Shown piece after piece: positions 4,168-48,691 of a stretch of DNA of 64,000 nt. The stretch's first letter is position 1; each line of letters starts with the position of its first letter. The DNA lies in NCBI GenBank assembly GCA_964465375.1, contig CAYXIJ010000007.1, positions 2,212 to 66,211 of the forward strand. Reading direction: 5' to 3'. Source of the DNA: an uncultured Gammaproteobacteria bacterium. GTDB lineage: Bacteria > Pseudomonadota > Gammaproteobacteria > Steroidobacterales > Rariloculaceae. The translations under genes were made by a program, and so were the position numbers. The notes under the pieces are model-generated. The model did not search any database. It was not told the DNA's origin and saw only the letters and a list, made by a program, of their open reading frames with translations.

Positions 4168-4791
4168 TTATAAAAGTCGCTTTAGAATTTCCTCTGCCTC
4201 CTCAAACGTTACCTCCCCCGGCTTCTGGACGTAACGAACATTGCCGTCTCGGTCGATGAAAACATTAAAAGGAAGTCCGCCGTAATTATTCCCATAACCG
4301 GCTGAAATACCCATAACCTCGAAAACATCGCCAAAGAGGACCGGAAAATCCACCTGAACCTCCGAAAGAAATTTCTCTACATTCTCTGCGTTATCTGCGG
4401 CAACACCAATAACTTCAAAATCCTGTCCAAGATACTTGGCTCTCAATTCATTGAATGCGGGCATTTCCTTTCGGCAGGGAATGCACCAACTTGCCCAGAA
4501 ATCGATCAACAGAACCCGTCCATCCCATTCTGCGATGGAATGCAAGCCACCATCTAAGTCAGTAAGTTGAAAATCTGGGCGCTTAAATTCAGTCACCACT
4601 GAAACAAATCTAGTCGTCTCCCCCCCTTGAGCTAGAGTTAGCCCCTGAGGAACTCCAATCATCACTAACAAAAAGCTACCCACTAGAATATTTTTAAAGG
4701 TTGCTGTTTTTATGACCAAGTACCAGTTTCCTTTTTTAGCTGCAAAAAACTTCCATGCTGATAATGAAGTATTGTCTTTGAGTTTATCCAA
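4168..4791 (-). CDS. TlpA/ResA-like thiol:disulfide oxidoreductase (membrane anchored)
   Basis: 207 aa. N-terminal hydrophobic anchor and a thioredoxin fold with WASWCIPC (CxxC). Confidence 0.8.
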   Translation of the reverse strand: MDKLKDNTSLSAWKFFAAKKGNWYLVIKTATFKNILVGSFLLVMIGVPQGLTLAQGGETTRFVSVVTEFKRPDFQLTDLDGGLHSIAEWDGRVLLIDFWASWCIPCRKEMPAFNELRAKYLGQDFEVIGVAADNAENVEKFLSEVQVDFPVLFGDVFEVMGISAGYGNNYGGLPFNVFIDRDGNVRYVQKPGEVTFEEAEEILKRLL

Positions 4792-4997
4792 ATTATAACT
4801 ACCCCCAATTTTTCCTAGAAACCAAAAAATCTTTCACTGCTCACTCCTACTACTTTCTAGCCGAGATAAGTACCAGTAAATACTCTGACCGTCAATGTAT
4901 CGTGACTTAGTCTAATATTTTTTTCTTAGCTCACTCTCAACTTGACATGAAACGTATAGCGTGTGAATTTCTTCTCCGCTGCGCGGGAGGTCGGCAT

Positions 4998-17593: not shown

Positions 17594-19123
17594 CTACGCA
17601 TTCTGAGCGATATCTGGTTGCTGTCGCGCATATCCCGTCGCTTGCTCAAATGCGTAAGCCAACTGTAACACCTCAAAATCCCGATGTCGGCGGCCAACTA
17701 TCTGCAGGCCAATTGGTAACCCATCAGGTGTGAACCCACAAGGTACGGAGATGGCGGGCAATCCAGTGCAAGTGATGGCATAACAAGTCGCCATCCAATC
17801 GATATAGGTTTCCATGGGAATACCATTGATCTCTCTTATCCAATCAATTTCCACTGAGAACGGCGCAACCTGGGAAACGGGCAGAACCAGAAAATCATAT
17901 TTTTCCAGGAAGGATGCAACACGCCTGTAAAGTTCGGTGCGCTGGGCCTCTGCTTCAGCAATATCCCGACTTGTGAGATTGAGCCCTTGCTCTATATTCC
18001 AAACGACGGTGTCTTTGAGGAGACCCTGATGCTGTTTATATTCATCGCGTAAATTTGAAGCGTAACTAGCTGCTCGTAGCGTTTGAAAAATTTTATCCGC
18101 TCCCGAAAAATCTGGCTCGCCATTTTCTGTTCGACAACCAAGATCTTCAAATGTACTACGGGAAGCATTACAGACTTCATTAACTGCGGGCTCCACGCTA
18201 TAGAGACCTAAATTCTCACTCCAAGCAATTGTCGTACCTTGAAAGTCCCTTGCTAAAGGACTGAGAAATTCATCTCCTGGTTCCAGGAGAGAAATAGGAT
18301 CACGAAAATCGGGGCCTGCCATTACCGACATCAGCAAAGCCACATCAAGTACTGTCCTCGCCATGGGACCTTGTACCGGCAAGGTATTCCATGCCCGGGT
18401 GGCCAAGCGCGGTATTCGTCCTGGAGAAGGCCGAAACCCGACAACATTACAAAAACTTGCAGGATTGCGCAGGGAACCACCAAGATCACTCCCGTCAGCA
18501 AGAGGTACCATCCCGCAAGCCAAAGCTACCGCTGCACCACCACTACTTCCACCGCAGGTCTTGGAAAGATCATAGGGATTGCGCGTCACTCCAAAAACCT
18601 CGTTGTATGTCTGGGAACCCGCGCCGAATTCGGGTGTGTTGGTTTTGCCAATAATTATCGCGCCAGCTTTCTTCAGTCTCTCCACAAACAACTCATCGGT
18701 TTCAGGCACAAAATTTTTATAGATTGGAGAGCCGAAGGTTGTACGTATTCCGCTGGTCAGAGCCAAGTCTTTAACCGCAAAGGGAAATCCATGCAAAAGT
18801 CCTGGCACTTGTCCTTTATTGAGCAAGCTGTCTGCATTGCGAGCTTCTGTAAGCAACTCATGTCTAGGCCGTAGTGTTGGAATTGCATTGACCAGCGGAT
18901 TCAACCGTTCAATCTGATCAAGAAAAAACTCCATGACCTCGACTGCAGTCACCTCTCGGCTGCGGAGCATGCGCGCCAATATATTCGCATCAACAAAGTT
19001 CAAATTGTTCAATTCTTGAGCTCTCGCTTCTCCGCCAGTCATACCACCCACCATTACCGCTGACAATCCTGACAAAAAACGCCGCCGTGACAAGTTTCTC
19101 TGTGGTTTTATAGTAGCTTCCAC
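17594..19123 (-). CDS. amidase-signature family amidase with a twin-arginine (Tat) signal
   Basis: 509 aa, GTG start. NLSRRRFLSGLSAVMVGG...ARAQ Tat leader. Amidase signature GGSSGGAAVALACG...GSDLGGSLRNPASFCNVVGF. Confidence 0.85.
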   Translation of the reverse strand: MEATIKPQRNLSRRRFLSGLSAVMVGGMTGGEARAQELNNLNFVDANILARMLRSREVTAVEVMEFFLDQIERLNPLVNAIPTLRPRHELLTEARNADSLLNKGQVPGLLHGFPFAVKDLALTSGIRTTFGSPIYKNFVPETDELFVERLKKAGAIIIGKTNTPEFGAGSQTYNEVFGVTRNPYDLSKTCGGSSGGAAVALACGMVPLADGSDLGGSLRNPASFCNVVGFRPSPGRIPRLATRAWNTLPVQGPMARTVLDVALLMSVMAGPDFRDPISLLEPGDEFLSPLARDFQGTTIAWSENLGLYSVEPAVNEVCNASRSTFEDLGCRTENGEPDFSGADKIFQTLRAASYASNLRDEYKQHQGLLKDTVVWNIEQGLNLTSRDIAEAEAQRTELYRRVASFLEKYDFLVLPVSQVAPFSVEIDWIREINGIPMETYIDWMATCYAITCTGLPAISVPCGFTPDGLPIGLQIVGRRHRDFEVLQLAYAFEQATGYARQQPDIAQNA

Positions 19124-19152
19124 GGAACCAACAGGCCCTCCCCCTCTCCCAT

Positions 19153-19386
19153 CTAAGGTATATCTGGTAGCTCGCCTAAGAGAGTAAAAATCTCTGAAGT
19201 CTCTGGAAAGCGGTTTTCCTTATGTTTAGAGAATATCAGCTGACCATTTGCAACAACGTCAAACACCCCGCCCCCACCCCTGATGAGCTCAATATCGGCC
19301 CCAAGTTGGCCTGCGAGCTCAGCCTCCAAACTGGAAGCCCTAGGTAGGTAATTTCACTTTTCACAGTATTTGATCAAAATCTTCAT
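19153..19386 (-). CDS. SelW-like (Rdx-fold) selenoprotein; in-frame UGA (19354-19356) read as selenocysteine
   Basis: Hand translation of the minus strand gives MKILIKYCEK-U-NYLPRASSLEAELAGQLGADIELIRGGGGVFDVVANGQLIFSKHKENRFPETSEIFTLLGELPDIP, then TAG at 19153-19155. The UGA is the second redox position of a C-x-x-U motif. The blocks YLPRA, GGGGVFDV, LIFSK and RFPE match my recollection of the Rdx/SelW family. The ORF track misses it because of the TGA. Confidence 0.75.
19321..19339 (-). promoter_or_regulatory. candidate bacterial SECIS hairpin downstream of the UGA
   Basis: The mRNA reads GGCUUCCA-GUU-UGGAGGCU, forming 7-8 bp including G.U pairs. The stem starts 14 nt after the UGA. The apical loop contains GU. 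Position and loop content fit the SelB-binding element model. No folding energy was calculated. Confidence 0.45.
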
Positions 19387-19513
19387 ATAGATCTTCTCTC
19401 GTCTTCCCTAACCTTAACTCTGCGCAAGTAGAAAAACCAACTAACTAAACTCACCATTTATTCCAGTTTAATTTCAATGCACACCACTCCTAACCATTAG
19501 CGGCGGTGGACAC

Positions 19514-19849
19514 CTAATCCGAGTCGGGGCCTCGGGGCCCACCAAAGTGCCTAGAACTATTTCCCTCGGCTGATTTAAGCGGCATTGTATGCTTATATAA
19601 TACAAACACAGCAATCCCCACCAGCAAAGGTATTGGATTGAGTATTGTAATGGCGCCCAGCACAGAGCCGAGTATCAAAAATGCCTCGATAAGCCCATGT
19701 ATTCCAGGAAATTTCCTGGAGCGCCCAACTAGAGTACCGCAAGAAATACACCGGACAACAAAGAGTAAACTCAGAAACCTATTAATACTCTGCTCTGAAC
19801 AGGCTGGACAAATACATTTCAAAACACTCATAGTCGCGTATGATGTCAC
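19514..19849 (-). CDS. hypothetical membrane protein with an N-terminal zinc-ribbon-like CPxC...CxxC
   Basis: 111-aa ORF. CPACSEQ...CISCGT is followed by two hydrophobic segments. No family recognised. Confidence 0.35.
   Translation of the reverse strand: MTSYATMSVLKCICPACSEQSINRFLSLLFVVRCISCGTLVGRSRKFPGIHGLIEAFLILGSVLGAITILNPIPLLVGIAVFVLYKHTMPLKSAEGNSSRHFGGPRGPDSD

Positions 19850-43207: not shown

Positions 43208-48691
<5,484 letters not shown>

Follow-up and report, generated by a model that had tools for sequence, protein, structure and literature searches.

Does the stretch between the amidase gene and the next open reading frame of this DNA lack a gene, as it appears to, or does it hold a selenoprotein gene in which an in-frame UGA is read as selenocysteine (Sec)? 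Within the window (the whole stretch of 64,000 nucleotides that was analysed), the mechanical ORF list contains no ORF of at least 60 aa between 19123 and 19514, a gap flanked by the amidase ORF (17594–19123, minus strand) and by an ORF of 111 aa (19514–19849, also minus). The first-pass annotation had noted this apparent emptiness and had proposed a minus-strand gene interrupted by a single TGA; both statements hold, and the coordinates and translation that it gave match the sequence exactly. Read on the minus strand, the frame consists of ATG, nine sense codons, TGA, 66 sense codons and TAG, and apart from the UGA it contains no frameshift and no further stop. The features of the gene are as follows.

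19153–19386, minus strand: selenoprotein gene of the SelW-like type (Rdx family), with one Sec codon among its 77 codons, MKILIKYCEK-U-NYLPRASSLEAELAGQLGADIELIRGGGGVFDVVANGQLIFSKHKENRFPETSEIFTLLGELPDIP
19386–19384, minus strand: start codon ATG, read from the sequence
19363–19365, minus strand: TGT, Cys8, first residue of the CxxU motif, invariant in the ortholog protein alignment and in all 93 related loci
19354–19356, minus strand: codon 11, a UGA read as selenocysteine that supplies the second redox residue of C-E-K-U (CxxU); TGA at the homologous codon in 93/93 loci
19155–19153, minus strand: stop codon TAG, read from the sequence

Very probably, the gene is functional and encodes a cytoplasmic SelW-like selenoprotein of 76 residues (Rdx family, thioredoxin-like fold) in an uncultured marine gammaproteobacterium.

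Protein family and predicted fold

With the UGA written as Cys, the translation matches the Pfam Rdx family (PF10262) with 67.4 bits against a cutoff of 22.6 (E = 1.3e-18), and the match covers residues 2–70, equivalent to profile positions 1–72 of 74. The part after the UGA (66 residues) scores 45.2 bits with PF10262 when taken alone, and the N-terminal part adds 22 bits to the score. Two NCBIfam models for SelT/SelW/SelH proteins are also above their cutoffs, TIGR02174 ('CXXU_selWTH') with 51.6 bits vs 34.2 and, marginally, the equivalog model NF041051 (SelTWH_Campy) with 89.9 bits vs 88. A profile made from eight full-length orthologs was searched against the PDB and matched 2fa8, 3dex, 2ojl, 2oka, 2p0g, 2obk, MIEN1 (2ljk) and mouse SelW (2npb), with E values down to 2.5e-12. 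The second Cys of the Y-C-x-x-C motif in these Rdx proteins aligns on the UGA, as seen in the YCtqCnW of 2fa8 and 3dex. The first-pass annotation had assigned the gene to the Rdx family, had placed the TGA at the second redox residue of a CxxC/CxxU motif and had argued that coding conservation continues beyond it; all three points are borne out, the last by the score of the post-UGA part and by orthologs that are collinear across the UGA.

The fold was tested on a proxy, namely an AlphaFold2 model of the full-length relative P0010, which is 67% identical to the window protein. The model (pLDDT 89.8) has the order b1-a1-b2-b3-b4-a2, with strands and helices at E2-8, H14-28, E31-37, E42-46, E49-53 and H65-70, and its CxxU lies at the b1/a1 junction. 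Superposition on 2fa8, 2obk, 2oka, 3dex and 2ojl gave a TM score of 0.92 and an rmsd of about 1 Å (1.0 Å for 2fa8). The properties that define membership in the Rdx (SelT-SelW-SelH) group are thus all present: an HMM score above the cutoff, an N-terminal CxxU at the end of beta1 and, for the P0010 proxy, a thioredoxin-like fold. The SelW-like protein is without a signal peptide.

Conservation of the UGA codon

A scan of one genome per species yielded 506 relatives of the SelW-like gene. The best 80 of these 506 were aligned, using the post-UGA part of the protein as the only query; together with the related loci recovered otherwise, the set comprised 93 loci. One of the two scan patterns was back-translated with Cys at the UGA position, a bias that would run against finding TGA there. 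The homologous codon is TGA in all 93 loci, which are 48–91% identical to the window gene and come from at least eight phyla, and the codons that precede it are conserved throughout as M-K-x-x-I-x-Y-C-x-x. The taxa represented are Gammaproteobacteria, Desulfobulbales (including the complete genome of Desulfosediminicola flagellatus), Myxococcota, Planctomycetota, Acidobacteriota, Verrucomicrobiota, Spirochaetaceae, Zixibacteria, Calditrichaceae and Ignavibacteria. Within the window gene's own clade, the TGA is shared by seven independent assemblies. The best relative in a reference genome is only 58–63% identical. Cys is found at this position in more distant homologs, both in the PDB Rdx proteins and in eight Rdx genes of plasmids or chromids (TGC/TGT). 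The first-pass annotation had proposed to check whether orthologs carry Cys or Sec at the codon, and the outcome favours its reading.

Between the window gene and its close relatives, pS is about 0.31 and pN 0.04–0.05, giving a pN/pS of 0.13–0.17 across the UGA. These values show that purifying selection acts on the frame, which is not that of a decaying pseudogene. TGA is also the terminator of 10 of the 29 Pfam-supported genes in the window, none of which contains an in-frame TGA; a reassigned genetic code is excluded by this normal use of TGA as a stop.

A SECIS hairpin within the coding sequence

Shortly after the UGA, the transcript can form a hairpin with the position and loop of a bacterial SECIS element.

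19321–19339, minus strand: bacterial SECIS hairpin inside the CDS, 8-bp stem GGCUUCCA/UGGAGGCU, apical loop GUU at 19329–19331

The hairpin begins 14 nt past the UGA, its loop starts 22 nt past the UGA, and it spans the codons Ala17-Ser18-Ser19-Leu20-Glu21-Ala22. Folded in isolation, it has a free energy of -9.6 kcal/mol. As a single sequence, the surrounding 71 nt fold no more stably than shuffled versions (z = -0.15), so the support for the hairpin is solely comparative.

For the comparison, 84 distinct segments of 63 nt, each starting 3 nt ahead of the UGA and ending 57 nt past it, were aligned without gaps. The stem (columns 21–28 with 32–39) lies in the same register in all 84 orthologs, and 89.4% of its cells are standard pairs; sliding the 3' arm by 1–3 columns lowers pairing to 25–51%. 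The covariation score is 0.280, against 0.094 or less for the slid registers, and among 500 shuffles, a control that ignores phylogeny, none reached the observed pairing, count of double changes or covariation. Double changes occur in four of the eight stem pairs (51 cells, in sequences that are phylogenetically related), and RNAalifold independently finds the upper five pairs. In a coding region, conservation of the sequence is by itself weak proof of a structure, but pair 24–36 connects two codons at their third positions and occurs as CG (60), UA (8), UG (6), GC (5) and GU (5), and is broken in none of the 84. Codon choice within the stem is frozen, with AGT for Ser28 in 60/60 cases, TCC for Ser25 in 38/38 and solely CTG, TTG or CTC for Leu31; for a Leu directly beyond the hairpin, six codons are in use. 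Stem pair 25–35, the fifth of the stem (19335 and 19325, minus strand), is U-A in the window and mismatched in 26/84 orthologs, mostly as U or A opposite C, which gives many family members a 1x1 internal loop. Judged from this alignment, the hairpin is kept by selection on the RNA itself and not as a by-product of the protein sequence.

Published criteria for bacterial SECIS elements call for a loop of 3–9 nt, an upper stem of 4–16 bp, a G as the first or second loop base (mostly with G or U next), a UGA-to-loop distance of 16–37 nt and an MFE of -7.5 kcal/mol or lower (PMC13188914). The window hairpin fits these with its GUU loop, 8 bp, 22-nt spacing and -9.6 kcal/mol. The orthologs have the loop G in 84/84 cases, at a spacing of 21–22 nt, with loops of 3 or 5 nt and stems of 5–8 bp; the MFE criterion is passed by the isolated 19-mer in 71/84 (13/84 miss it) and by the 60-nt segment in 84/84. 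The first-pass annotation had recognized a SECIS element from its position 14 nt after the UGA and from the GU in its loop, an identification now strengthened by the agreement of the published model with the window and its orthologs and by the covariation. Searches of Rfam matched neither a SECIS nor any other family at the site, either at gathering thresholds for the whole window or with permissive E-values for 19100–19520; bacterial SECIS elements are not usefully modelled in Rfam.

A negative control was drawn from ten Rdx genes of plasmid and chromid records, of which two are Sec-forms and eight are Cys-forms (TGC/TGT). The eight Cys-forms lack an in-register SECIS hairpin: in the register of the Sec-forms, 2–6 of the 8 positions are paired, with energies of -3.4 to -7.4 kcal/mol. 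These eight genes are closely related to one another and have in common a 5-bp helix that is shifted and has a loop of 6 nt, and the control therefore carries modest weight.

Alternative readings of the UGA

The in-frame UGA could also mark a pseudogene, i.e. a Cys-form Rdx gene broken by nonsense mutation of TGY to TGA, its host being unable to decode Sec. Cys-forms of the family do exist, and no genes of the Sec machinery were seen in the 64-kb window. A broken gene, however, would not be expected to show the same TGA in 93 of 93 relatives from many phyla, the seven independent assemblies of its own clade included, nor a pN/pS of 0.13–0.17 over the whole frame, a hairpin kept by compensatory synonymous changes, and a frame free of frameshifts and further stops; this explanation is effectively refuted. 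It is very improbable, too, that the UGA is a true stop and that the product is a protein of 58 aa initiated at an internal TTG or ATG (LEAEL...), with the ten upstream codons serving as a leader peptide or remaining untranslated. Public gene calls of the close relatives are exactly such 58-aa products, and the internal start is TTG or ATG in relatives, but the ten codons at issue, which lie in frame, encode strand beta1 and the catalytic Cys, and all 93 loci conserve them as MK-x-x-I-x-Y-C. Among the best-conserved residues of the family are the nine that separate the UGA from the internal start (NYLPRASS); the Pfam alignment runs through residues 2–70 and gains its 22 bits from the N-terminal part, and a 58-aa product would be left with neither beta1 nor the redox motif.

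Decoding of the UGA as a standard amino acid, such as Trp or Gly, through a reassigned code or near-cognate read-through, has next to no probability. Some database entries do show W at the position, which reflects a choice of the gene caller and is not evidence. Against it stand the regular use of TGA as terminator by ten of the 29 Pfam-supported window genes, none of which carries a TGA in frame, the alignment of the position to a redox Cys, for which Sec is a known functional replacement, and the occurrence of an identical arrangement in phyla with the standard code. Moreover, the hairpin fits the consensus for SelB-binding SECIS elements and covaries, and read-through would need no hairpin. 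Selenocysteine insertion is thus the reading adopted here.

Relation to known selenoproteins and proposed mechanism

Bacterial SelW-like selenoproteins with a CxxU motif were described in the Sargasso Sea selenoproteome by Zhang, Fomenko and Gladyshev in 2005 (PMC1088965). In the GOS selenoproteome (Zhang and Gladyshev 2008), 427 Sec-forms of SelW-like proteins were counted against 56 Cys-forms, and the family ranked first in abundance in the marine samples (PMC2398784), and it is the most abundant prokaryotic selenoprotein family of marine environments (PMC1088965, PMC2398784). An analysis of 2006 argued that Sec was the original state of the SelW-like family (PMC1794560), a view that fits the presence of TGA in 93/93 loci. 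The window gene resembles these marine selenoproteins in HMM family, CxxU motif, length of about 75 aa, marine habitat and an in-ORF SECIS whose small apical loop carries a G. There is no substantive difference, although the window copy lies directly upstream of a Tat-signal amidase gene. It is therefore a known and common kind of selenoprotein, and nothing about it is new in kind biologically.

The solved Cys-form Rdx proteins, Atu0228 (2fa8), SAV_2001 (3dex), the VC SelW-related protein (2p0g), 2obk, 2oka and 2ojl, share the fold and the place of the motif, but have CxxC (TGC/TGT), are about 25–30 residues longer and are 23–33% identical. Mammalian selenoprotein W (2npb) and MIEN1 (2ljk) likewise share the Rdx fold and the position of CxxU/CxxC (TM 0.68 and 0.79, identity about 21%). 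In contrast to eukaryotic SelW, which relies on a 3'-UTR SECIS, SBP2 and eEFSec, the window gene has its SECIS in the ORF right after the UGA, corresponding to the bacterial SelB mechanism. The SECIS elements of E. coli fdhF and fdnG are similarly placed in the ORF just past the UGA and have a small loop beginning with G-U. Compared with the roughly 40-nt fdhF element, the window hairpin is shorter and simpler, with a loop of 3 nt and no bulged U identified; about a third of its orthologs differ further by a 1x1 stem mismatch, which might stand in for the bulged U of the E. coli SECIS.

By analogy with the established bacterial pathway, SelB-GTP carrying Sec-tRNA(Sec) would bind the apical G-U loop of the hairpin, and selenocysteine would be delivered when the UGA enters the ribosomal A site, in competition with RF2. 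The motif and the fold suggest a thiol/selenol oxidoreductase that works by way of a selenenylsulfide between Cys8 and Sec11, and, as a member of its family, the protein would cycle between a selenol/thiol form and a selenenylsulfide form. SelW has been linked with glutathione, and there is no defined bacterial substrate (PMC1088965).

Gene neighbourhood

The nearest gene downstream of the SelW-like gene codes for an amidase.

17594–19123, minus strand: amidase gene, co-oriented with and downstream of the SelW-like gene (Pfam Amidase 337 bits, NF005686 564 bits)

The amidase starts about 30–60 nt past the SelW stop on the same strand, no terminator-like site was found between the two genes on the minus strand, and they are probably carried by one transcript. 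The N-terminus of the amidase (18944–19123, minus strand; SRRRFLSGLSAVMVGGMTGGEARA) has a Tat-like (twin-arginine) signal, SRRRFLSGL...ARA, and the enzyme is therefore probably periplasmic. All six close relatives with contigs long enough to show it (L004–L009) keep the order SelW-then-amidase, and their amidases are 94–98% identical. In four Myxococcota or 'Deltaproteobacteria' MAGs (L022, L023, L025, L051), an amidase gene is also found beside the SelW-like gene, but about 1–2 kb upstream and on the opposite strand, and its product is 30–33% identical to the window amidase. In an enzyme family of this great size, such adjacency in a distant clade could be due to chance, or it could reflect an association that recurs. 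The sole lead that is mildly new is the conserved position of the selenoprotein gene next to that of a Tat-signal amidase. A real functional coupling of the selenoprotein to the amidase is unlikely; if true, it would give the long-orphan bacterial SelW-like family its first concrete physiological partner or pathway.

Other neighbours include genes for a thiolase, a class-III aminotransferase, an AsnC regulator, a pirin, CopD and a CDF transporter. The 111-aa ORF on the other side of the gap (19514–19849, minus strand) has no Pfam or NCBIfam match. Its product is Cys-rich at the N-terminus (CICPAC...CISC) and hydrophobic in the C-terminal half. With 84% identity to its counterparts in L004 and L005, it is probably genuine, a small membrane protein or zinc-ribbon protein. 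Between the homolog of this ORF and the SelW-like gene, both of these relatives carry a gene for a 279-aa protein of the metallo-beta-lactamase fold (L004 1407–2246, L005 768–1607), where the window has merely a 128-nt spacer (19387–19513), indicating a gene-sized indel within the clade. Elsewhere in the window (43208–44131, plus strand) is a gene for a 307-aa protein with an ArsR/SmtB-type HTH at its N-terminus and, in addition, a class-I SAM-dependent methyltransferase domain; the gene directly precedes metF (44037–45017) and metH (44960–48691).

Source organism and selenocysteine machinery

The PBP2 encoded in the window is about 64% identical to proteins of 'Candidatus Rariloculaceae bacterium' and 'Gammaproteobacteria bacterium' MAGs, and the close SelW relatives come from marine metagenomes. 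The source is therefore taken to be an uncultured marine gammaproteobacterium. Bacterial insertion of Sec requires selA, selB, selC and selD; in Gammaproteobacteria, selC may lie embedded within selB (PMC13188914). None of these four genes was found within the 64-kb window; SelA, SelB and SelD were absent from the 39 larger window ORFs that were scanned, and the tRNAs of the window are solely Arg-ACG and Gln-UUG. Of the proteins at the window ends, one has no database record and the other is found solely on contigs of 2–4 kb, and the scan of one genome per species yielded no closely related reference genome. We infer that the organism decodes Sec, because selection keeps both the UGA and the SECIS element and because the four sel genes are required for such decoding. 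Its genome would accordingly carry all four, as the first-pass annotation had implied.

The window was also scanned for other UGA-interrupted ORFs with a nearby Cys. The one intergenic candidate, at 4755–4910 on the plus strand ('MKYCL-U-VYPNYN'), superficially looks like another small CxU gene but is AT-rich and of low complexity, has no coding character and was rejected as a chance match; the remaining ORFs of this type lie inside or antisense to established genes.

Annotation of related genes

The first-pass annotation had predicted that standard gene callers would miss genes of this kind, and public records of the relatives agree. The eight closest database relatives (P0001–P0008, 84–90% identical) are all 58-aa proteins that start just past the UGA, yet the DNA of these entries has an in-frame MKILIKYCGK-TGA upstream in every case, as do two longer contigs. 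Three entries of lower similarity are full-length (P0009, P0010 and P0011; L001 892–1113, L002 349–564 and L003 597–821), but show C-x-x-W, the W being encoded by TGA in each. Relatives that are 90% identical bear the JGI name 'selT/selW/selH-like putative selenoprotein'. Similar cases occur in two cultured organisms, whose genes are the two Sec-forms among the ten drawn for the negative control. Thermomicrobium roseum (L096, NC_011961.1, 408170–408409) has a Sec-form Rdx gene with a TGA (CTS-TGA-GY) and a hairpin, and the corresponding RefSeq CDS, TRD_RS11105 ('Rdx family protein'), starts past the in-frame TGA and is truncated. In Cytobacillus spongiae (L101, NZ_CP089998.1, 370650–370871), a Sec-form Rdx gene with CMR-TGA-NY and the hairpin GCCGCGA-GUU-UCGCGG is unannotated.

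The main value of the finding lies in annotation, as a real gene that ordinary gene callers miss or truncate. By its presence, the gene would also flag this uncultured marine gammaproteobacterium as a user of selenocysteine, and the genome therefore probably holds other UGA-interrupted genes.
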